Of a stretch of DNA of 64,000 nucleotides, positions 28,066-53,108 are shown in pieces; the first letter of the stretch is position 1, and each line of letters starts with the position of its first letter. The stretch comes from Escherichia phage W22, in the sequence record PV159336; one strand, given 5' to 3'. The translations under genes were made by a program, and so were the position numbers. The notes beneath the pieces were generated by a model that worked only from the letters and a program-made list of their open reading frames with translations, ran no database searches and was not told where the DNA came from.

Positions 28066-29043
28066 TTAAGCAACAGCCTGGTCTTCTTTTTCAGGGAAGA
28101 TTAAACTTGCAATAACACCCAGCCCCAGAGTACCTAACACAATATACATACTGATCGTCGGATCAATGTGTGCTGGCAGGAAACTCACTTTTGCGTGCAG
28201 AGTTTCTGCAAACGGGTGATACATCAGTTTTACACCCACAAATACCAGGACTACGATAACTGCTTTCTCCAGATGAACCAAATATTTCAGTGCAACACTA
28301 AGGACAAAGAACAGAGCACGTAGACCTAAAATTGCACACAGCATTGAAGAAAATACAAGCAGAGGTTCTTGTGTCACTGCAATTACTGCTGGAACAGAGT
28401 CTACTGCAAAGATTACGTCAACCATTTCCATTACAAACACACAAACCAATGCAGGAGTTGCTACACGAACACCATTTTTGATTGTGAAGAACTTCTCACC
28501 ATCCATCTGATCAGATACAGGGAACAGCTTACGAACAATGCGAGTAGCCCAGTGTTTAGAGTAATCAACTTCTGCGTCATTATCTCCAGCGAATACCATT
28601 TTAGCTGCACAGAAAAGGATGACCGCACCGAAGAAGATATTAACATACCAGCCCAAACTCAACAAGTAAGTACCTACTGCTACAAACACACCTCGGAAGA
28701 CAATCGCACCTGCAATACCCCAAAGTAGAATCTTGTGTTGCAAGTGTGTACTTTTAATACCAAAACTTGCGAATACTGCCACAAATACTACTAAGTTATC
28801 TACAGAAAGAGATTTCTCCAACACATACCCACTCAAGAACAAGCTCGCAAAATCAGCACCGTGTTGGAAGTATACAAAACCATAGTAGGCTAATGATACC
28901 CCAATCCAGAAAATTGACCAGCCAATTGCAGATTTAAATGAAATTTCTTTGTTTTCCCTGTGTCCAAAGAAATCAATACAAATCGACAAGACTAAAATAC
29001 CCACTAAAACAACCACATCAATAATTGGGAAACCCAGTTGCAT
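28066..29043 (-). CDS. TerC-family integral membrane protein
   Basis: AGAGGAG RBS; multi-TM; signature LEKSLSVDNLVVF. Confidence 0.8.
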   Translation of the reverse strand: MQLGFPIIDVVVLVGILVLSICIDFFGHRENKEISFKSAIGWSIFWIGVSLAYYGFVYFQHGADFASLFLSGYVLEKSLSVDNLVVFVAVFASFGIKSTHLQHKILLWGIAGAIVFRGVFVAVGTYLLSLGWYVNIFFGAVILFCAAKMVFAGDNDAEVDYSKHWATRIVRKLFPVSDQMDGEKFFTIKNGVRVATPALVCVFVMEMVDVIFAVDSVPAVIAVTQEPLLVFSSMLCAILGLRALFFVLSVALKYLVHLEKAVIVVLVFVGVKLMYHPFAETLHAKVSFLPAHIDPTISMYIVLGTLGLGVIASLIFPEKEDQAVA

Positions 29044-29120
29044 TCTTTTCTCCTCTTTAATGCGGAGGACAATCCTCCGCTCTATGTCGTATACTATAAA
29101 CTGTTTTTAAAGAAAGTCAA

Positions 29121-29369
29121 CTAGTTCAGTTCTGTAATTTTAAGTTTATCTTCTTTGTTAATGATAGGGAAAGCTACAGCATCACCTACATCATCAATAA
29201 AGCAAACAGCAAGACCACCTTCCACTTTGCTAACCTGGCCATTAAAGGCGTGATACGGGGCAGGAACAATATCTCCATCTTCAAGGAGAATAGCCTCATA
29301 AACCTTACCAACAGTACAATCACGAGTGTTTATAAATTTTTCAAGCACTTCAACATTTACTTTACGCAT
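29121..29369 (-). CDS. hypothetical protein
   Basis: 82 aa ORF. Confidence 0.4.
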   Translation of the reverse strand: MRKVNVEVLEKFINTRDCTVGKVYEAILLEDGDIVPAPYHAFNGQVSKVEGGLAVCFIDDVGDAVAFPIINKEDKLKITELN

Positions 29370-29383
29370 ATAAAAATCCTCTC

Positions 29384-29590
29384 TTATTTGTTAGATTGAA
29401 AGATACCACGAAGTACCGCAAGAATGAACGTCACACAGACTACACTCCAAAACGTTACAGGAACATGATGCCAGTCTAAACCGATAATGTCAATCATATA
29501 GTTGTATGCTAAAAGCAGTAGCCAACTAGGGATTAACACAATCAAGAATACAACAATAAAACAACCTAATACTGCTAAAACACCTGCCAT
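29384..29590 (-). CDS. small membrane protein
   Basis: 68 aa, two hydrophobic segments. Confidence 0.4.
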   Translation of the reverse strand: MAGVLAVLGCFIVVFLIVLIPSWLLLLAYNYMIDIIGLDWHHVPVTFWSVVCVTFILAVLRGIFQSNK

Positions 29591-29599
29591 ACTTTCTCC

Positions 29600-30316
29600 T
29601 TATTTCAGTTTGTAAACAATTACATTTAAACCTTTGTTTACTAGAGTTTCTTCGATCATAAGTTTTACAATATTCCAAGAACCTCCAGCCAAACCACAAC
29701 CAAGCATTGGTAAACCTACAATTTTACCGCCTGAAGATACAACATCGTCTCCCATACTATCTAACGCATTGTAGATAGCTTCATAATTCAGGTCACGCTT
29801 ACCTTCCTCACGACGACTATAACCATATTGTCCATATAAATTATAAATTGTCAAATTGTTTTCTGTATACTTAGTAAACGTACCTAATTTTTTATAATCA
29901 CCACGTTTAGTGGCACAATCTGCTTTAAACGCACCAGGCCACTTGCTTTTAATTTTTGGTGCAATACCACTACCCATAGTGCAAAAACAGTTACAGCAGT
30001 GTGCTATAGCGTCTATATCGCCTCTCTCGGCTGCTGCTAAAAGATCACCGTATACCTCAATGATACCTGCTGGATAACTTGTTACAATTTCATCTTCCCA
30101 GTACATTTGCTCTACACCACCGATCAGTGCAAAGTTTTGTGTAATGCGATCATCAATATAATTAAGACCTGAAACATACACAGCATATTCATCCTGTGCT
30201 GTAATGCCTTGTACACGAATTCTTAAGACACCATCTTTATCTGTTGCTACACGCCCAAAATCTTTTTCTGTAATATTGGTGATAGGATCTCCGAAAGTCG
30301 TCACTTTATTAGACAT
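29600..30316 (-). CDS. Macro-domain protein (ADP-ribose binding/processing)
   Basis: Start refined to ATG 30316 (overlaps PRTase stop as ATGTCTAA); DAIAHCCN...MGSGIA and KIVGLPMLGCGLAGGSW fit macro-domain glycine-rich blocks. Confidence 0.45.
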   Translation of the reverse strand: MSNKVTTFGDPITNITEKDFGRVATDKDGVLRIRVQGITAQDEYAVYVSGLNYIDDRITQNFALIGGVEQMYWEDEIVTSYPAGIIEVYGDLLAAAERGDIDAIAHCCNCFCTMGSGIAPKIKSKWPGAFKADCATKRGDYKKLGTFTKYTENNLTIYNLYGQYGYSRREEGKRDLNYEAIYNALDSMGDDVVSSGGKIVGLPMLGCGLAGGSWNIVKLMIEETLVNKGLNVIVYKLK

Positions 30317-31166
30317 AATAATCCCCTTTAACATTAGATTTGTTGATAATGTTGCTTTCAAAAAATTGACGCAGGAAATCAAAGTTCTCTTTGTATTTTT
30401 CAATATTATTGTAACCTTCTGCAAGGCAACCAAAGAACAGTTGTTCTACATAATACAAAGGAAGTTGTGAAAGTGCAATTTTAAAATCAACTTCGCTTTG
30501 ACTCATTAGATACTTAATAGGACGAACCAAACATTTAGCATCAGTTTCTTGCTTAATCATTTTAATAAAAGCTGCCAGGTTATTGATATAGTTGAAGTTA
30601 AGTGCAGCTTCGGTGTTGGCTTCTGTACCTTCATACTTTGCAAAGTACAGGAAAAACGTATCGTTTTCAACACCTTCTTTGTCTAAAATTTCAATAAGTT
30701 TTTCTTCGTGTGTTCCTGTAATATTAACATCATCAATGAAAATCAGAGTTTTATTACCCCAGAAATCACGATTGATAGAGAAAGTGTCACCATCGATCAA
30801 AGCCTTACGATCTTCTTTGCTAAGAAATCCATAATCATTGATATAACTCACTTTACGATGAACGATATCCCACTCTACTGCTTTACCTCCTTTGATAGAG
30901 ATTAGGTAGTTGAGGTGATCTACAAAATGTTCAGATAACACTGTAGCTGCATTTTTCACATAGTTATATGGAGATGGAATAACAACAAAACTTTCATTTA
31001 CTAGTCGTTCTTCATATTTAGAAAAGAAACTTTCAGCCAGAATGCGTCCCATTCTTTTTGCTGCCTGGTTACTACCAAACTTTAGTTTGGAATAATCTGC
31101 AATGTTAAATTTTGCTTCCTTCAGGTTAGTAAAAGTATTAGCAAAATGTTGAATTTGATTACGCAT
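30309..31166 (-). CDS. phosphoribosyltransferase (type I PRTase-like)
   Basis: AGAGGA RBS; PRPP-binding-like KTLIFIDDVNITGTHEEK. Confidence 0.5.
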   Translation of the reverse strand: MRNQIQHFANTFTNLKEAKFNIADYSKLKFGSNQAAKRMGRILAESFFSKYEERLVNESFVVIPSPYNYVKNAATVLSEHFVDHLNYLISIKGGKAVEWDIVHRKVSYINDYGFLSKEDRKALIDGDTFSINRDFWGNKTLIFIDDVNITGTHEEKLIEILDKEGVENDTFFLYFAKYEGTEANTEAALNFNYINNLAAFIKMIKQETDAKCLVRPIKYLMSQSEVDFKIALSQLPLYYVEQLFFGCLAEGYNNIEKYKENFDFLRQFFESNIINKSNVKGDYYV

Positions 31167-31815
31167 TAATAAGTTCCTCTTTTTTAAGTTTAGCCAACAA
31201 GTCTTCTGGATTAATAATATGACAGAACTTCATCCCTATGTCAACAGCTTTTCCATCATAAATCAAACTATCTCCAACGTGTAAAATCTCCTCTGGTGCG
31301 AGATCAAACGTTACCATTTCATCAAAAGAGAGTTTAAAAAACCTAGGATCTGGTTTACACAAGCAAAACTCATCAGAAAAATGCATAAAGTCAAATGGTA
31401 ATTTTGTTAAGCCAGAATATACAGCTAAGAAACTACCTGGTACAAAATTAGTATTGCTCTTAATACTCAAAGAATAGATTGAACTTAGCTCTTCCAACTT
31501 CTTGCAAAGCTCAGGGTTCAATATTGGAGGATGTTTTATAAACATTGCTAAACAGTCTCTTTTTAACCCATCTACTTTATCAAGATCAATGTTCAAACGA
31601 GTAGAAAGTGTTTCCCAAGCATTCCTAGACGTTCCACAAATGCCTTTTTCTGCTTTTAAATCCAGGAGAGTTTTTACCTCTTTATATACAGTAGCTGCTT
31701 CTGCCTCAGAACAAGAGGCATACTCGGCAATAACCTTGTTGCGTTCTTCTGCATACAAAGGATTAGCAGTAATAAGAGTATTCCATACATCAAAAGAAAT
31801 ATGCTTAACAGTCAT
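31159..31815 (-). CDS. HAD-superfamily hydrolase
   Basis: Start refined to ATG 31815 (GGAGGA RBS); motif I ISFDVWNTL (second Asp replaced), motif III CKPDP, motif IV VGDSLIYDG. Confidence 0.55.
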   Translation of the reverse strand: MTVKHISFDVWNTLITANPLYAEERNKVIAEYASCSEAEAATVYKEVKTLLDLKAEKGICGTSRNAWETLSTRLNIDLDKVDGLKRDCLAMFIKHPPILNPELCKKLEELSSIYSLSIKSNTNFVPGSFLAVYSGLTKLPFDFMHFSDEFCLCKPDPRFFKLSFDEMVTFDLAPEEILHVGDSLIYDGKAVDIGMKFCHIINPEDLLAKLKKEELINA

Positions 31816-31984
31816 TTTTAATCCTCCGTCCAAAAGAATATCATCTGCTTAATTTTATTGATCTCTTGATGTAGTAACTTTCCAGCATGTGATTGATCTT
31901 TAATATTGATAGCAAGAATTTCAAGCTCCGTTAGTTTTTCTTGGATAGCTTTATATTCATCATCTGTAAGCATTTTCTTCCCCT

Positions 31985-32222: not shown

Positions 32223-33383
32223 TTAGTAAGAACGACCACCAAACACATACTCTGTGTAGTTTTTACGTTCTTTGTTTTTAATAACAACTTCAATGTTGTT
32301 ACCTTTATCATCGGTGAACATAAAGTGATAACCGTCACCACCCATTGTACGAATGTGTTTTTCATCATACGTTAGCAAGATACGGTCTACACCCCAGTAG
32401 TAGTCACCTTCTTCATCTTTATCTTCTACGGTAACAATCCCTTCCATTTCAGGAAGATGCTCTTCTCCTGACTTATGATCTACAGCTACAACATAACGAT
32501 TACCGCTAAACAAACCTTGTGCTGTCATACCGTCAATATCGGTATCTGACGAAACATCTGCTGTACGATCTACACCGTTAACTTTCAGAAGTTTAACTTC
32601 TTTTGCAGCATAGCGGTGTTCAGTAATACTGATACCCATTAATGCAAGTGCATCAGAGAATTTGTCATTAGGATAACGGTTAAGTTCTTCTACTAATGAC
32701 TGAACAATATCAAAGTTCAAATCCACGGAGAGATTATAAAGCGTTTCAAAATCTGGTAAGAAGGCTTTGTTCTCCAGATTTTTAGCCAGATAATCATCCA
32801 TAGTAGCTTTAGGTAGTTTCTTATAACTAAAACTGTAGAAAATACGGCTAGGACGATTACGCAAAAATTCTGATACATAACCATCATTTTTAGTCAATAC
32901 AAACAGCTTGTCATAACCACCAACACCATCCAGCAGGGTAAGCAAACCGTCTTGTGCATCTTTTTCAGCATACAGTTTATCAAATTCATCGATCATAATC
33001 ATCACAGGTTGTGTGATTTTAGACATAAAATTGATAAAGCCTTCACCATTAAAAGCACTACCGATAGAAATAGTAGGAATACCCATTTCACGAAGAGCAG
33101 AAGACAGCATTTTAGCTTGCAAAGTTTTACCGCTACCTTTCGTACCCTCAAGGAGAACACCTGTGTTTTTACCTTTGCGGCTAAGGAACGTCTTGATAAT
33201 ACGTTCTGATTTATCATCAGTATCACCGTATGTTACTGAAGGGACTTCCATATCGTTTTTAGGATACAGGAAGAACTCGCCACTTTGAGTAACACCTACA
33301 CCAAAAGTTCCTGCTGGAATTTCTTCAATATCTGTACCAGACTTCTGACGCAGGAAGATTTGATTGCCGAATACTGTAAACAT
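32223..33383 (-). CDS. P-loop NTPase (AAA-type ATPase), paralogue 1
   Basis: AGAGGAG RBS; Walker A GTKGSGKT, Walker B IMIDEFDK; paralogous to 49186-50313. Confidence 0.6.
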   Translation of the reverse strand: MFTVFGNQIFLRQKSGTDIEEIPAGTFGVGVTQSGEFFLYPKNDMEVPSVTYGDTDDKSERIIKTFLSRKGKNTGVLLEGTKGSGKTLQAKMLSSALREMGIPTISIGSAFNGEGFINFMSKITQPVMIMIDEFDKLYAEKDAQDGLLTLLDGVGGYDKLFVLTKNDGYVSEFLRNRPSRIFYSFSYKKLPKATMDDYLAKNLENKAFLPDFETLYNLSVDLNFDIVQSLVEELNRYPNDKFSDALALMGISITEHRYAAKEVKLLKVNGVDRTADVSSDTDIDGMTAQGLFSGNRYVVAVDHKSGEEHLPEMEGIVTVEDKDEEGDYYWGVDRILLTYDEKHIRTMGGDGYHFMFTDDKGNNIEVVIKNKERKNYTEYVFGGRSY

Positions 33384-46664: not shown

Positions 46665-46955
46665 ATGAACATCACACTAGCAACTAAGAATATTACAGAA
46701 ACTTTTGATGGTTTTGGCATTATTATTGCTGTTCATGGGCATAACGAAAAATGGTTAGCCTCTTTTGAAGAGGACAAAGAACGCAATGTACGTTTGAATG
46801 CACCAATCAAAGTTTTACACCAGGTAGGTGAGAATAAGAAACAATGGAGATCATATAAAGAGTGGAACATTACAAACGAGTTAATACACAAACTTGACAA
46901 AGTGATAAACATGTTCGACAATGCACCAAGCAGTGCAAAACGTGTCTTAATGTGA
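46665..46955 (+). CDS. hypothetical early protein
   Basis: 96 aa ORF with AGAGG RBS; first + strand early gene. Confidence 0.45.
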   Translation: MNITLATKNITETFDGFGIIIAVHGHNEKWLASFEEDKERNVRLNAPIKVLHQVGENKKQWRSYKEWNITNELIHKLDKVINMFDNAPSSAKRVLM

Positions 46956-46967
46956 GAGGAGAACCAA

Positions 46968-47255
46968 ATGTATTATTCACAAAATGAAGTAGCAAACATT
47001 AAACTGGCAGTGGGCGATCTTATTGTGTCACCTAACTACTATTGGGATAACACAGATTTGGTTGAAGTAGTAACCTATGTTGGAGTTGAAGGTATTGTGC
47101 TCTACACACTAGGTGGAGGTGTTGTTGGGGAAATGGAACGTTATACGACAACGAAGAAACTGGTAAGCTCTTATCGCATGTTTTTACACCAAGGTTCGGA
47201 AGAGTATACAGCTTTCTTGTTGAAATTAGATGCAGATCGGGAGAAGGCACGATGA
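46968..47255 (+). CDS. hypothetical early protein
   Basis: 95 aa ORF with GAGGAG RBS. Confidence 0.45.
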   Translation: MYYSQNEVANIKLAVGDLIVSPNYYWDNTDLVEVVTYVGVEGIVLYTLGGGVVGEMERYTTTKKLVSSYRMFLHQGSEEYTAFLLKLDADREKAR

Positions 47256-47605
47256 AAATTGTACACGATGAAATTCAATTTGAAGAGAGTGATCTTCTTG
47301 ATCTGGATGTGACACTAAGTAAACTGATCTACAACGCACTTTCTGCATATCGTGCAAAAGTGATAGCCACAAACAATGTTAAAATTCCTAGCGTGTTACT
47401 TCGTCGGATGTACCCACACGCTAAAGGTGACTATCTACCTTATATGGAAGAACGAGCAGCAGAACACTGGTTAGAAATTCTTGAAAAAATGGAGTCCTCT
47501 TTTAAAGATTCAACTCCACCGGAAGAAGTTAATGAAAAACAACGGCAAGAGCGTTTAGAAGGTCGTATTTTGTTTGCTAAGTATTTCCATAATTTGTGGA
47601 GCTAA
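47252..47605 (+). CDS. hypothetical early protein
   Basis: 117 aa ORF, ATGA overlap with upstream stop. Confidence 0.45.
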   Translation: MKIVHDEIQFEESDLLDLDVTLSKLIYNALSAYRAKVIATNNVKIPSVLLRRMYPHAKGDYLPYMEERAAEHWLEILEKMESSFKDSTPPEEVNEKQRQERLEGRILFAKYFHNLWS

Positions 47606-47685
47606 ACATATCTGGTAAAATCACTTATATGTTCTTAGTATACTTGTGTAAAGAAGTTATCGGTCTAATTAATTAAGGGGAAGAT

Positions 47686-47937
47686 ATGATTCAGTTTCAA
47701 AAAGGTCAAAAGATGACAGTTCACGATGCAGAGGAAATGGAGTTTGCACTTAAACTTCTCGAAAATGCTGGGTTTGTGTGGATCAACGGTGGAGAGAAGC
47801 CTACAGCTTGGCTTCCGCATGAGAAAATAGCCAACCACACCTTCCCTGATAGTATCAATTGGCATTCTGATGGTAAGATTTGCCGTGGAAGTTACCCAAC
47901 AGGTGTTGAGTGGACTATTAAATTAGGAGGGCTTTAA
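47686..47937 (+). CDS. hypothetical early protein
   Basis: 83 aa ORF with GGGGAAG RBS. Confidence 0.45.
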   Translation: MIQFQKGQKMTVHDAEEMEFALKLLENAGFVWINGGEKPTAWLPHEKIANHTFPDSINWHSDGKICRGSYPTGVEWTIKLGGL

Positions 47938-47938
47938 T

Positions 47939-48277
47939 ATGTTTAGTAAAGAAATGAGAGAAGTAATCGCCACTTTGGTAGTTGATCATGGTGTTGAAGT
48001 TGAGCGTCACGTTTGGAACGATGAACCTCCTTTCTTCGATTTGGCATCACGAGCTAAAAGTCATATGCACCTGCTGGAAGACGGTAATGAGTTTGTTCTC
48101 CGTATGCGTTATGATCGAGAGTTTCGAATTCCGCTTGACACTGAACCAGATGGTGTAGTAATGTGGTTGGCAGAACATTTCGCATACGATGCACTACATG
48201 GAAGAAGTTTTGGTAATGAGCGTTGGGATGCCATTTGTCGTAAGCATAATATTGAACCAGAGTACGGAGTTTTATAA
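47939..48277 (+). CDS. hypothetical early protein
   Basis: 112 aa ORF. Confidence 0.45.
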   Translation: MFSKEMREVIATLVVDHGVEVERHVWNDEPPFFDLASRAKSHMHLLEDGNEFVLRMRYDREFRIPLDTEPDGVVMWLAEHFAYDALHGRSFGNERWDAICRKHNIEPEYGVL

Positions 48278-48528
48278 TGTTAAGTATCAAACCTAAAATG
48301 ATAACAGCAGATGAAGCAGACTTTATTTTCAAATGTGGACGTGTATGGAGAGAATTCACAAAAGGGAATGAAGTGGTGGTTGTTGTCGAACACAAGATAT
48401 CTATCCAGGATCTGTTTGGACAATATGTTGATGTTATTAAATTAGGTATTGACAAGGGTTTAGTTGAGGTGTTAACATTAGATCAAGTTGAAGCAGAGCA
48501 CCTCGATAAAGTGGTGGTTGAATTTTAA
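48277..48528 (+). CDS. hypothetical early protein
   Basis: 83 aa ORF, overlapping start/stop. Confidence 0.45.
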   Translation: MLSIKPKMITADEADFIFKCGRVWREFTKGNEVVVVVEHKISIQDLFGQYVDVIKLGIDKGLVEVLTLDQVEAEHLDKVVVEF

Positions 48529-48548
48529 AATACAGACGGGAGAAAGGT

Positions 48549-48722
48549 ATGAGTTTCTTTGTTACAGTATTTATGGCTATCTGGATTGTAGTCTCACTCG
48601 TTCTTTTCCTGGTGGGTTGTCTGGAAGAGATTAAGAAAGCGGTTATTTGCGGTTTCTTTGGCTTTATTATCTCTCCTGCCTGGATGTGGTTCTTCATTAT
48701 GATTGGTTTCCTTAAAAGGTAA
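48549..48722 (+). CDS. small membrane protein (57 aa), absent from ORF track
   Basis: ATG 48549 with GGGAGAAAGG RBS; two hydrophobic segments. Confidence 0.4.
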   Translation: MSFFVTVFMAIWIVVSLVLFLVGCLEEIKKAVICGFFGFIISPAWMWFFIMIGFLKR

Positions 48723-48736
48723 GTGAGGAATAAAGA

Positions 48737-49174
48737 ATGAGTAAAACAAACGCAATCGCAGATAAAGCAACGGATGTACTTCTGAACATGGTTAACGTCA
48801 CTATTCAAACAATGAGTGATGTTGTAGAGTTTGGAAAACAACAAATTCCAGAAGTAATCCATCAATTATTAGTGTGGAAAGCAGTATCCGCAGGTTTATG
48901 GCAACTTTTTAGTATTTGCTTTATGTTTATTACTTTTATTGCTGTGCGGAACCTCGTAAAAGCAATTAAAGATAAAGAATGCCTGTGGTCACGAGATCGC
49001 TATGGTGAAGTATCTGCTTTACCTATTGTTGGTCTTGTTGTCTGTGCTTTCTTTTTCTTTTTAGGATTTGTTATTTTCTTTTCGAATTTTGATTGGCTAA
49101 AAATCATTATTGCACCAAAAGTGTATCTGATTGAATTTGCTGCTGATTTAATTCGTTCATCTCAACAAAAATAA
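48737..49174 (+). CDS. membrane protein
   Basis: 145 aa; GAGGAA RBS; multiple hydrophobic helices. Confidence 0.45.
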   Translation: MSKTNAIADKATDVLLNMVNVTIQTMSDVVEFGKQQIPEVIHQLLVWKAVSAGLWQLFSICFMFITFIAVRNLVKAIKDKECLWSRDRYGEVSALPIVGLVVCAFFFFLGFVIFFSNFDWLKIIIAPKVYLIEFAADLIRSSQQK

Positions 49175-49185
49175 AAGGGGTTAAA

Positions 49186-50313
49186 ATGAAATACACGATT
49201 TATGGTGATATTGTAAGTGTAAATAAAGATATGGGTGTGGAATCTAATTATCTTCCACCTGGATTCTATACTGTTAGTCGTGATCCCCTTGGCAATTATT
49301 TTTTAAGCCGTGGTAATCTAACAGGTGTACCGGATGTTCTGTATGGTGAAACAGAAAAACGAGCAAATCACGTTATCCGTACATTCCATCGCCGGAGTGC
49401 ACAAGGTAAAAATACAGGTTTGCTTCTGACAGGAACTAAGGGCAGTGGTAAAACTATGTTAGCCAAGCTCATTAGTCGTGACCTTGTAGAAGAAGGTATT
49501 CCAACTATTATGGTTACTCAAGCCTACAGTGATGCTAATTTCATTGAACTTATTAGCAAGATCACCGACAAAGCAGTGATTATTTTTGACGAGTTTGATA
49601 AAGTATATGAGAAGAAACAAGATCAAGAAGCACTTCTCACTTTGTTAGATGGTACTGGCAGTGGTAATAAACTGTTTATTCTAACTAAAAACAGTGGCTT
49701 TATCTCTGAATTCTTTCTAAATCGTCCTAGTCGTGTGTTTTATAATTTTAATTATGATAAAATCTCACTAGAAACTATGATTGACTATTTAGATAAAAAC
49801 CTGGATAACAAAGCACACTTTGATAATTTCCAAAGACTTTGGGATGTAAGTTTAGAGTTGTCCTTTGATGTGATCCAAGGTATAGTAGAAGAACTTAATT
49901 TCTACCCTGATTTATCCTTTAAAGAATGCATCTCTATGATGGGCGTTTCTTTGGGTGGTGGTAATAAATGGGATATCAGCAGTGTTGTTATTAATGGAAA
50001 ACTTCAGAAAGTTAGCTGGGTATCTAGTTGGCATAACTTCACACCTGCAATCTTTTTAGGTGGTTCGTGCACACTAGACGTGTACTTGTCATCTCCAAGT
50101 GATGCAGATTCTAAAGAAGCCCTTGCTAATAGCTCTTACGTGGTTTTTGATGATGAAGGCGATGCTCGAATTCCATTGAATGCGACAAAAATGAAAGCAG
50201 ATCTTATTACAGGCGGTAAAATCGTTGTGTTTAGTGATGATCCAGAAGATTCTTTCCGTATTGTTCTGGAACCAACTATCACCAATGGTGCAACTTTGGC
50301 AAGTGTGTTTTAA
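49186..50313 (+). CDS. P-loop NTPase (AAA-type ATPase), paralogue 2
   Basis: Walker A GTKGSGKT, Walker B IIFDEFDK; co-linear similarity to 32223-33383 (LLTLLDG, LFILTKN, NRPSRVFYNF). Confidence 0.6.
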   Translation: MKYTIYGDIVSVNKDMGVESNYLPPGFYTVSRDPLGNYFLSRGNLTGVPDVLYGETEKRANHVIRTFHRRSAQGKNTGLLLTGTKGSGKTMLAKLISRDLVEEGIPTIMVTQAYSDANFIELISKITDKAVIIFDEFDKVYEKKQDQEALLTLLDGTGSGNKLFILTKNSGFISEFFLNRPSRVFYNFNYDKISLETMIDYLDKNLDNKAHFDNFQRLWDVSLELSFDVIQGIVEELNFYPDLSFKECISMMGVSLGGGNKWDISSVVINGKLQKVSWVSSWHNFTPAIFLGGSCTLDVYLSSPSDADSKEALANSSYVVFDDEGDARIPLNATKMKADLITGGKIVVFSDDPEDSFRIVLEPTITNGATLASVF

Positions 50314-50327
50314 GTAAGCCAGTAAAT

Positions 50328-50354
50328 AAAAACCCGCTTCGGCGGGTTTTCTTG
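50328..50354 (+). terminator. rho-independent terminator
   Basis: AAAACCCGC-TTCG-GCGGGTTTT hairpin then CTTG. Confidence 0.7.
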
Positions 50355-50387
50355 TATTGATGCCAGATTTAATAAAAGGAGTAGTAG

Positions 50388-51365
50388 ATGGTAGCACCAA
50401 AATCATGGGAACAATATAAAGAAGAGTGTCAACCAATAGCAGAGAGTAAGCAAATCCAAATCTTAGGATGGACGGGACAATGGAAAGGGGGCCACACAAA
50501 ACTTGATTTGTTGTGCCATTGTGGTTATAAATGGGATACTACAAGTATTAACAGTTTTAAATGTGGTAGCGGTTGTCCACAATGTAAGAGGGAGAAACAA
50601 ACAATGTCCGACGATCAACATATTGCAGGTTTCTTTTCTACAGGGAAATTTAAGGAAGGCACTATCTTCACTAACACAGGAACACGGGGTAAAGGATGTA
50701 GGCATATTACCTGGATGGTTGAATGTCCTGTTTGCTCTCATGATGAATATGTTCAAGCAGGTGTTTGTGATGGTAAATTTTACTCTAAAGGACATCGCCT
50801 TAAACAAGGGTATATTCCGTGTCGTTGTGGGAACTATCAGTATACAGAAGACCAGATCACCTATAGGGTAAAAAAGGAAGTAGAAGGGAAAGGGTATGTC
50901 TGGGTAGATTGGATTACCAAACCCTCTTCTATAGGTAAGTTTAAATATCTTTGTCTTGTGCATGGTGAGCAGATAGGGAGTGCTCGTAATTTATTAAGCC
51001 TCGGTCAAGGTTGTCCACAGTGTGCTGGTCATAATCAACAGCAATTATATATTAATATTGTTAAAGATAATGATATTATAGTTGCTCTTAAGTTTGGTAT
51101 ATCTAAAGATAGTGATAGACGATTAAACGGTCAAAATAGCCGTAATCTGTTTTTTATGGAGCGTATTTGTTTATATGATTTTAGCACAGTGAAACAATGT
51201 AAGGCTGCTGAAAGAGCTATAAAGAAAAAATTAAAAACTGGTATTTTAACGGAAAGAGAGTTGAAAGACGGTTATACAGAAACAGTAAGTGTTTCTGATT
51301 TGGAAAATCTTCAAAAAATTATTACACAATATGGTGGCAAATTAGTATACAGTAAGGAGATGTAA
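50388..51365 (+). CDS. zinc-ribbon-rich protein with C-terminal T5orf172 (GIY-YIG-like) domain
   Basis: AAAGGAG RBS; repeated CxxC modules (CGSGCPQC, CPVCSH, CRCGNYQY, GCPQCAGH); C-terminal LKFGISKDSDRRLNGQNSRN. Confidence 0.4.
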   Translation: MVAPKSWEQYKEECQPIAESKQIQILGWTGQWKGGHTKLDLLCHCGYKWDTTSINSFKCGSGCPQCKREKQTMSDDQHIAGFFSTGKFKEGTIFTNTGTRGKGCRHITWMVECPVCSHDEYVQAGVCDGKFYSKGHRLKQGYIPCRCGNYQYTEDQITYRVKKEVEGKGYVWVDWITKPSSIGKFKYLCLVHGEQIGSARNLLSLGQGCPQCAGHNQQQLYINIVKDNDIIVALKFGISKDSDRRLNGQNSRNLFFMERICLYDFSTVKQCKAAERAIKKKLKTGILTERELKDGYTETVSVSDLENLQKIITQYGGKLVYSKEM

Positions 51366-51917
51366 ATGCGGATTACTGATAAGTATGTGTTCTTCTTCTC
51401 GGCAAAAGATGAATTTAGCAACTGGTATCTATCATCTTTTATTGAACCTTTAGCTCCCAAGTATAATAATTCTATTACAAGTTCTGTTGAATTTACTTGT
51501 GTGGAACAATATATGATGTGGAGAAAAGCATGTTTGTTTTATGATTACAGTATTGCATCTTCTATTTTAACCGGAGATCTAAGATATACAGGAGAAAAAG
51601 AACAAGCATATTATAAACGACTAGGCAGACTAGTTAAAGATTATGATGAAGATACCTGGACTTCTTTACGGGAGAAGATTGTCAAACGTGGTTTGTATCT
51701 TAAATACACACAAAATGAAGATCTCAAAAATAAACTTATAGCCTACGCAGATAAGGAGTTCGTAGAGGCAAGCCCTTATGATTCTATTTATGGTATCAAA
51801 ATGGGGATGTGGGATCGTGATGTGGAAAATAAGGACTGTTGGAAAGGACAAAATCTTTTAGGAAAATGGCATACAGACCTTGCTGTTTATCTAAAAGCAC
51901 AATCTGATATTTCCTGA
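51366..51917 (+). CDS. NADAR-domain protein (YbiA-like N-glycosidase / ADP-ribosyl-processing family)
   Basis: AGGAGA RBS; VFFFSAKDEFSNWY, CVEQYMMWRKACLF, EFVEASPYDSIYGIKMG, GQNLLGKW blocks. Confidence 0.7.
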   Translation: MRITDKYVFFFSAKDEFSNWYLSSFIEPLAPKYNNSITSSVEFTCVEQYMMWRKACLFYDYSIASSILTGDLRYTGEKEQAYYKRLGRLVKDYDEDTWTSLREKIVKRGLYLKYTQNEDLKNKLIAYADKEFVEASPYDSIYGIKMGMWDRDVENKDCWKGQNLLGKWHTDLAVYLKAQSDIS

Positions 51918-52132
51918 TATTTTGAAAATTTTTATTTTTATAAAAAGGGGTGTGGGTTTCATGTACAGAAATTCACCCTCTGCACAGTATATCCAGAGTA
52001 AATATTATTCTGTACTCTGTTAATAAAGTATTTAATTTGTTTGTTGGATTATGGTATCTGATCTTTAAAAGGCATACTATCTCTTAACTACTACTTATAA
52101 CAGAACAGTAAAATCATTTTTATAAAAAGGAC

Positions 52133-52340
52133 AAAATTATTTAAAGTTTTTACAGATTTTTGGGTACAAATTTTGAAAATGAAAAGTTCAAGTTTGGTCA
52201 AAATTATTTAAAGTTTTTGTACGTATTTCTATCCAGATTTTGAAAATGAAAACTTCAATTTTTTAAAAATTCCCCAGTTTATTTAAAGTTTTTTTGCCTT
52301 TTTCCGTAGAAAAATCAAAAATGAAAAGTTCAATTTCGTG
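52133..52340. repeat. three tandem AT-rich direct repeats (about 67-77 bp units)
   Basis: Each unit has ATTTAAAGTTTTT (52139, 52206, 52281) and TGAAAATGAAAA(G/C)TTCAA (52174, 52241, 52316). Confidence 0.7.
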
Positions 52341-52359
52341 TTTTTATGGGTATGCGTAT

Positions 52360-52470
52360 GATAATCATTCTCATTTGTAAATGAGAATCATTATCATTTA
52401 ATTATGTAAATGATAAGCATTCTCACTAAGAGAATGAGAATCATTAGCAAATGAGAATTTTTCTCATTTA
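52360..52470. promoter_or_regulatory. palindromic operator-like array built on TGAGAAT/ATTCTCA
   Basis: Three inverted repeats: 52360-52395 (17-bp arms), 52418-52436, 52449-52469; at least 7 copies of the 7-mer in 110 bp. Confidence 0.6.
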
Positions 52471-52730
52471 CAGAATAACGCGCAGGGGCGGTGTTTGTCT
52501 CGCGCTCCCGTGTCCCCTCGCCATACAATAAGAATAGCATAACCAACAACAAAAGCAAGCGATTATTTTTATCTTTACATTTCTTTACAAATTTATTTTG
52601 GACGAGCTACCGGCGATCAACCTTCCAACCAGTGCCCCCTGGTATGTTAGCCCCGCCTTTACGCCGTGGGGGTGGCGTTTCCTCTTCTGTATGTAAAACA
52701 GTATAAGCCCGATCCCTGGGCTTGTCAAGA

Positions 52731-52997
52731 TTATTTTTTGTTTTCTTGCCAGGATAGGACACCTAACCAAAAATACATGTCGCCCCGCGCCCCTGGCGGG
52801 ATCTTGCTTTCCCCGCCGCCACTGCAAGCCCATAAATAACCATCAGCGAACGGATCAAAGTGATCTATCTCTTCCACCTTATGATCGCCCAGGTTGAGAA
52901 CGGTTTCAACCTTTAAGCCCGTTGCGCTTGCTACCTGGTGCACCGTGCCGCCTTGCCAGCCCAATGAGTGCATGAGATGTAAAGGAGTATTTGTCAT
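52731..52997 (-). CDS. hypothetical protein encoded in GC-rich island
   Basis: 88 aa ORF with AAGGG RBS; local GC content far above surrounding phage DNA. Confidence 0.3.
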   Translation of the reverse strand: MTNTPLHLMHSLGWQGGTVHQVASATGLKVETVLNLGDHKVEEIDHFDPFADGYLWACSGGGESKIPPGARGDMYFWLGVLSWQENKK

Positions 52998-53108
52998 GGT
53001 ATCGCCCTTTCTTTGATGTGCGCCCTGGTTGGCGCGGTAGAAAGATAATAGCCGTTTCCTTTATAGATAGCAAGCAAAAAAGAAATGAAAAAAAGATTAA
53101 AAAAATGG

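Follow-up and report, generated by a model that had tools for sequence, protein, structure and literature searches.

The NADAR gene of Escherichia phage W22 (PV159336) very probably encodes an orphan, antitoxin-like ADP-ribosylglycohydrolase, an orthologue of AdfN^Bas60 that would reverse the guanine ADP-ribosylation of DNA by the toxin DarT1. We analysed a 64,000-nucleotide stretch of this record (hereafter the window), in which the initial annotation had proposed the gene as a counter-defence against DarT-type ADP-ribosylation of DNA. This proposal is supported by published experiments on AdfN^Bas60, which shares 182 of 183 residues with the W22 protein, and the demonstrated protection is against DarTG1, not DarTG2. 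The function is therefore already known rather than new, since AdfN^Bas60, 99.5% identical to the W22 protein, was tested and named in 2025.

As read from the sequence, the gene extends from ATG to TGA and encodes 183 aa (Table 1). Its ATG directly abuts the TAA stop (51363-51365) of the upstream gene, with a Shine-Dalgarno sequence 6 nt away, and the N-terminus MR[IV]TDKYVFFF is conserved in the 61%-identical homologue of Klebsiella phage 05F01, which supports the choice of start codon. Two antisense ORFs within the gene, 49 and 61 aa long, lack support. All four hallmark blocks on which the initial annotation had based the family assignment are present, starting at residues 10, 46, 131 and 161, and the protein scores far above the Pfam NADAR threshold across most of the domain (PF08719, E=3.5e-36; 125.4 bits, gathering cutoff 35.1; the match spans positions 9-154 of the 163 in the profile). 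The catalytic glutamate of the superfamily and the lysine seven residues further on correspond to E47 and K54 within the block VEQYMMWRKA. Further matches were to phrog_1017 (E=5e-50) and to the NCBIfam model TIGR02464 (109.4 bits, curated cutoff 73.7), and a chain of PDB entry 8BAU (E=2e-12) was the sole solved structure found by sequence search. In contrast, the W22 protein is not a member of the DS32_2 NADAR anti-phage defence family (NF053876), against which it scores 26.2 bits for a cutoff of 240.

Table 1. Features of the W22 window discussed in the text, in order of position.
Feature	Position	Strand	Basis or remark
TerC-family membrane protein gene	28066..29043	-	
Macro-domain gene, candidate AdfM-type thymidine-ADPr hydrolase	29600..30316	-	Pfam Macro; phrog_335; T4 Tk.4 homology
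ComF-like PRTase_3 gene	30309..31166	-	
HAD hydrolase gene	31159..31833	-	
AAA+ ATPase gene, diverged paralogue	32223..33383	-	
AAA+ ATPase gene	49186..50313	+	phrog_2376
Terminator-like hairpin AAAACCCGC-TTCG-GCGGGTTTT with T-rich tail	50329..50350	+	Between the AAA+ ATPase gene and the endonuclease/NADAR pair
CapR-repeat and T5orf172 (GIY-YIG-like) endonuclease-type gene, 325 aa	50388..51365	+	Pfam CapR 85.9 bits, T5orf172 20.5 bits; phrog_681 'endonuclease'
Shine-Dalgarno AAGGAG	51354..51359	+	Before the NADAR ATG, within the last codons of the upstream gene
adfN-type NADAR gene, AdfN^Bas60 orthologue	51366..51917	+	ORF; Pfam, NCBIfam and PHROG matches; near-identity to BASEL copies
14-bp stem-loop, no canonical U-tract	51946..51981	+	29 nt past the NADAR stop; end of the co-directional block
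AT-rich stretch, 22-24% GC	52100..52480		Immediately downstream of the NADAR block
Palindrome nest (ATGATAATCATTCTCATTT / AAATGAGAATCATTATCAT)	52357..52476		Resembles tandem Fur boxes
GC-rich island, 50-54% GC	52500..53000		Flanks ~30-45% GC
Near-consensus sigma-70 promoter	52728..52700	-	11 of 12 positions
ORF, 88 aa	52731..52997	-	Equivalent to bas61_0109; no Pfam match

The window is that of a Justusliebigvirus-type E. coli myovirus. The 4 kb around the NADAR gene are most similar to Escherichia phage EmilieFrey (98.8% nucleotide identity), the BASEL phage Bas61 of the genus Justusliebigvirus in the Stephanstirmvirinae, and match dozens more E. coli myoviruses of ~146 kb at 96-98% identity. 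Orthologues of the NADAR gene in this group include bas60_0111 (PaulScherrer, Bas60), bas61_0107 (EmilieFrey, Bas61) and bas62_0106 (JohannJBalmer, Bas62), all annotated in BASEL as 'putative YbiA-like N-glycosidase', and the records matching the gene also include that of phage phi92. The W22 protein differs from the Bas60 copy solely by A178T (W22 Ala, Bas60 Thr), at a position past the end of the Pfam match (residue 168), and the two genomes share the gene order ATPase, CapR/T5orf172, NADAR. It differs from the Bas61 copy solely by S62N (W22 Ser, Bas61 Asn; 182/183 identical), and from the Bas62 copy by S62N and D96T (181/183 identical). All three BASEL copies equal the W22 protein in length and occupy the corresponding locus, behind the ATPase and CapR/T5orf172 genes. 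The 7, 16 and 18 nucleotide differences to Bas60, Bas61 and Bas62 thus yield merely one, one and two amino-acid changes, which argues that the gene is under purifying selection, and it is kept at an identity of at least 95% in 55 related phage genomes. Homologues were detected by tblastn in 716 phage records, mainly of Staphylococcus, Escherichia, Listeria, Enterococcus, Bacillus and Klebsiella phages, a breadth that is consistent with the survey of Iyer et al., in which NADAR occurs in 27% of myoviruses. Labels of public orthologues vary from 'GTP cyclohydrolase II' and 'DNA methyltransferase' to 'swarming motility protein' and 'hypothetical protein'. Four 'Campylobacter phage' records of ~146 kb (MG065639, MG065645, MG065656 and MG065689), for which C. 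jejuni is given as the host, are 97.8% identical to the W22 NADAR gene, and this host attribution looks doubtful.

The experimental basis for an anti-DarT1 function comes from Johannesman et al. (Nat Commun 2025, PMC11825919; preprint PMC11257639), whose main text distinguishes the NADAR of Bas60, Bas61 and Bas62 from gp30.3 of T4 and names it AdfN^Bas60. As reported there, plasmid-expressed AdfN^Bas60 neutralises the DarT1 toxin in uninfected E. coli, and phages RB69, T5 and Bas25 regain full titre on a DarTG1 host when it is supplied ectopically; the plaquing of T5 on DarTG2 is unchanged (PMC11825919). The tests of AdfN^Bas60 in that main text are by ectopic expression and include neither a deletion in Bas60-62 nor the plating efficiency of these phages on DarTG1, and the in vitro glycohydrolase assays that it describes are of AdfN^T4, not AdfN^Bas60 (PMC11825919). 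All NADAR families tested hydrolyse guanine-linked ADP-ribose (G-ADPr) in vitro. From this family biochemistry and from the conserved catalytic residues described below, we infer that the W22 protein would likewise hydrolyse G-ADPr enzymatically. The phage itself would presumably need the gene. In the mechanism that we propose, the DarT1 toxin of a DarTG1 host would ADP-ribosylate the guanines of the phage DNA at N2, a modification that would block phage replication; by hydrolysing the N-glycosidic bond, NADAR would release the ADP-ribose and restore the template, so that replication could proceed on the DarTG1 host.

The predicted active site of the W22 protein is consistent with this mechanism. 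In DarG1 of E. coli C7, guanine-ADPr hydrolysis depends on residues E88, K95 and D171, and K115 is needed in vivo against DarT1 though dispensable for catalysis, whereas in the P. nicotianae NADAR (PnNADAR) ADP-ribose is held by K50, R79, Y84, D86, W89, R93, E125, D130 and W133 (Schuller et al. 2023, PMC11543638). We mapped these residues by HMMER alignment to 8BAU, deposited as 'NADAR domain-containing protein' and equated here with the P. nicotianae NADAR of Schuller et al. by its residue pattern (chain numbering being theirs plus 2). The catalytic and ADPr-binding residues so predicted for W22 NADAR are E47, K54, K84, R88, Y93, E95, W98, R102, E134, D139 and Y142. E47, which is invariant in the NADAR alignment, corresponds to E88 of the C7 protein and E43 of PnNADAR, K54 to C7 K95 and PnNADAR K50, and K84 to C7 K115 and PnNADAR K75. 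R88, Y93, W98, R102, E134 and D139 align with PnNADAR R79, Y84, W89, R93, E125 and D130; the substituted positions are E95, for D86, and Y142, for W133. Since E134 also aligns with the glutamate in the 'VEHT' of YbiA, W22 NADAR is of the Glu type, like YbiA and the general "NADAR" family. At the position of K84, YbiA has alanine and T4 AdfN has glutamine in the alignment, and neither of these two proteins neutralises DarT1 in uninfected cells. The lysine may thus track DarT1 neutralisation, AdfN^Bas60 having the lysine and being active, a suggestive pattern that is a correlation across three proteins and not a test.

Compared to T4 AdfN (gp30.3), the founding phage anti-DarT1 NADAR, the W22 protein belongs to the same superfamily, would share the role of reversing guanine ADP-ribosylation by DarT1 and has the same spacing of glutamate and lysine. 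The two proteins nevertheless have no detectable pairwise similarity (BLASTP E=2.3) and fall into different PHROGs, phrog_652 for T4 AdfN. T4 AdfN has Lys-His where W22 has E134-A135, so that the histidine which replaces the subfamily glutamate in the T4 type is absent from W22 NADAR. They also differ in behaviour, as T4 AdfN is fully active just in T-even infection and does not by itself neutralise DarT1, which AdfN^Bas60 does according to the main text of the published study. The lack of similarity and the separate PHROGs fit the conclusion stated there that phages acquired NADARs more than once. With the DarG1 antitoxins of E. coli C7 and G. lovleyi, W22 NADAR shares the fold family and the equivalents of C7 E88, K95 and K115, and it would share G-ADPr chemistry and DarT1 neutralisation. 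It differs in the position of the catalytic aspartate D171, two residues before the conserved glutamate, which in W22 is a phenylalanine (position 132, in KEFVEAS), E134 being the predicted counterpart. It also differs in the N-terminal beta1-beta2-alpha1 extension of DarG1, for which W22 NADAR, judged by sequence, has no room since its Pfam domain begins at residue 13, at profile position 9. Furthermore, the W22 gene is an orphan, with no adjacent DarT and no ART domain in the four genes at 48737-51917.

Three other readings of the protein were weighed against reversal of DarT1 modification as its main role. The best surviving of these, which we consider improbable, is that it natively acts mainly on other ADP-ribose conjugates, either linked to cytidine or RNA or in the form of small ADPr-derived immune signals, the reversal of DarT1 being one of several activities. 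Members of the Glu-type NADAR and YbiA families can strip both DNA and RNA of C-ADPr, an activity that DarG1 and T4 AdfN lack, and as W22 NADAR is of the Glu type it may also erase cytidine- or RNA-linked ADP-ribose. The phage group to which W22 belongs carries a broad NAD/ADP-ribose toolkit that could offer a setting for such substrates: the EmilieFrey genome (MZ501063) encodes a sirtuin-family protein (103822-104634), an adjacent pair of genes for a PRPP-synthetase-like protein and a nicotinamide phosphoribosyltransferase (139344-142042), an RNA ligase and a polynucleotide kinase. The gene pair presumably resembles the NARP1 NAD+-reconstitution pathway. No test so far points to substrates of this kind, however, and the DarT1 phenotype is, in the published main text, strong and specific.

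It is very unlikely that the gene is instead an auxiliary metabolic one, for a YbiA-like N-glycosidase which removes reactive intermediates of the riboflavin pathway and acts on DarT1 modification as a side activity of over-expression. Though the protein has sequence marks of the YbiA subfamily, with a score above the cutoff of TIGR02464 ('riboflavin biosynthesis intermediates N-glycosidase') and the subfamily-defining glutamate E134 rather than the aspartate of DarG1 or the histidine of T4, and though the label chosen by the BASEL annotators agrees with them, identity to E. coli YbiA is just 27% over 82 aa. The published tree sets AdfN^Bas60 among bacterial NADARs that are not YbiA-like (PMC11825919, main text), and no riboflavin genes are annotated nearby in EmilieFrey. 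Also against a purely metabolic role, E. coli YbiA gives no protection against DarT1 in vivo, whereas AdfN^Bas60 is reported in the same main text to protect fully. That the enzyme reverses ADP-ribosylation by an ADP-ribosyltransferase (ART) of the phage itself, for self-immunity or regulation, has a precedent in T4, which couples its own ARTs (Alt is annotated; ModA and ModB also belong here) with NADAR and Macro genes, but is hardly credible for W22, as the annotation of the EmilieFrey genome lists no ART in the parts examined (~25.7 to 146.7 kb) and nothing ART-like lies near the NADAR gene in the W22 window.

Reversal of DarT1 modification by NADAR may be complemented by a second enzyme. 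The separate Macro-domain gene to which the initial annotation had pointed is confirmed by a Pfam Macro match (31.3 bits, cutoff 22), and encodes a macrodomain at residues ~85-238 preceded by an N-terminal extension of ~85 aa. It matches phrog_335 at 6e-65, the same PHROG that T4 Tk.4/AdfM matches at about 1e-65, and is homologous to Tk.4 itself (30% identity over 139 aa, E=1e-17), with which it shares the motifs IAHxCNCFxTMGSG and NLYxQ. What sets it apart from the T4 protein is the additional N-terminal region and a location beside the HAD hydrolase and ComF-like PRTase genes. Among solved structures it is closest to SCO6735 (E=3e-15), BT1257 and TARG1, and it matches the macrodomain of DarG more weakly (1e-3). 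SCO6735 cleaves thymidine-linked ADP-ribose off DNA and is able to rescue cells from DarT, with Gln85, Asn27 and Gly128 as key residues; by our reading of the alignment these are conserved in W22 Macro, in GQYG, CN and GCGLAGG. The macrodomain AdfM of chimalliviruses, an anti-DarTG2 factor, is DarG2-like with a catalytic lysine, in place of which W22 Macro has the glutamine of the SCO6735 type. In T4, tk.4 encodes the macrodomain AdfM, and its knockout sensitises the phage to DarTG2 (HIDEN-SEQ 2025 preprint, doi 10.1101/2025.11.20.689424). By analogy with T4 AdfM, W22 Macro would probably cover the thymidine-linked modification made by DarT2.

Because of the relationship to T4 Tk.4/AdfM and the DarTG2 sensitivity of the T4 knockout, the idea of two activities is well founded by homology, and on balance we lean towards a W22 phage that would carry two ADP-ribose-removing enzymes, NADAR and Macro. 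A more far-reaching proposal, which we advance only tentatively and regard as rather doubtful, is that the two may form a two-armed anti-DarTG kit, AdfN acting on guanine-linked and an AdfM-type Macro on thymine-linked ADP-ribose, in which AdfN might additionally erase cytidine- or RNA-linked ADP-ribose as a broad-spectrum eraser of base ADP-ribosylation.

The Macro gene stands in a minus-strand run (28066-31833) of HAD hydrolase, ComF-like PRTase, Macro, two small ORFs and TerC-family genes, and PRTase, HAD and TerC are components of the abbreviated phage 'Ter' modules described by Iyer/Aravind. The Macro family was found in 2,908 phage records, of which just 71 cover at least 80% of the W22 protein, and the N-terminal extension occurs at full length mainly in the phage group of W22. 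The PRTase was found in just 156 phage records, regularly listed beside a hydrolase gene; it is also present in Rhizobium, Brevundimonas and Caulobacter phages, and the Rhizobium records list the hydrolase beside it. Given 2,908 records with Macro against 156 with PRTase, the adjacency of the two appears to be lineage-specific and without an obligate link, and with the homology to T4 AdfM we rejected a part in a Ter-type small-molecule module as the main reading of the Macro gene.

The initial annotation had further placed the NADAR gene at the end of an early operon. Gene order and geometry fit an operon end: eleven co-directional ORFs follow each other with small gaps (46665-51917), the neighbouring genes upstream of the block lie on the opposite strand in the EmilieFrey reference annotation, and beyond it lie ~1.25 kb of gene-poor DNA for which that annotation has just two small minus-strand ORFs. 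The hairpin at 50329-50350, a strong terminator-like one, sets the last two genes apart from the rest of the block, however, so that an early operon is supported only in part. The 38 nt in front of the endonuclease-like gene showed no good promoter, and NADAR has no obvious dedicated one. A canonical intrinsic terminator directly after NADAR was rejected, as the consensus scan called none and the hairpin there is without a U-tract; folding of a 161-nt stretch with this stem-loop gave z=-2.3.

The CapR/T5orf172 gene immediately upstream of NADAR varies in length (325 aa in W22 and Bas61, 390 aa in Bas62 and 467 aa in Bas60), and in Klebsiella phage 05F01 no gene of comparable size is annotated upstream of the NADAR homologue. 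The length variation points to CapR repeats that expand and contract, or to mobility of the nuclease gene, and the gene is probably a selfish nuclease gene that provides context only and is not needed for NADAR function. Upstream of it, the AAA+ ATPase gene has a diverged paralogue on the opposite strand ~16 kb away, the two products being 47% identical over 254 aa with C-terminal regions that do not align. The BASEL equivalent of the plus-strand ATPase is labelled 'FtsH-like protease', yet no protease domain was detected.

Within the gene-poor DNA beyond NADAR, the AT-rich stretch contains three direct repeats of ~70-79 nt (starting at 52116, 52183 and 52258) and, after these, densely packed palindromes. 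Matches to the Fur consensus with up to 3 mismatches number four in the window versus 0.05 expected by chance, and two of the four fall in this stretch. The stretch with these repeats and palindromes could serve as an origin of replication or as an array of operators. The stretch is followed by the GC-rich island with its minus-strand ORF and promoter-like sequence, and RNA structure of the GC-rich segment was not above background on either strand (z ~0.2). A tRNA or noncoding RNA in the gene-poor 1.25 kb was rejected, as ARAGORN found nothing and Rfam gave just two chance-level miRNA matches, and so was a host origin of the island and palindromes, for which a search of 5,426 E. coli genomes gave no match and whose ORFs match nothing in Pfam.

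DarTG systems, which ADP-ribosylate DNA, are widespread as a defence against phages, and orphan antitoxin-like hydrolases offer phages an escape route from them. The case of W22 NADAR is mainly confirmatory, in that a genuine counter-defence gene was recognisable from sequence alone, and it has practical value given that many NADAR relatives in GenBank carry wrong labels or are listed as 'hypothetical protein'. The companion Macro gene is an obvious candidate for an anti-DarTG2 factor in a phage group that is popular for therapeutic use.
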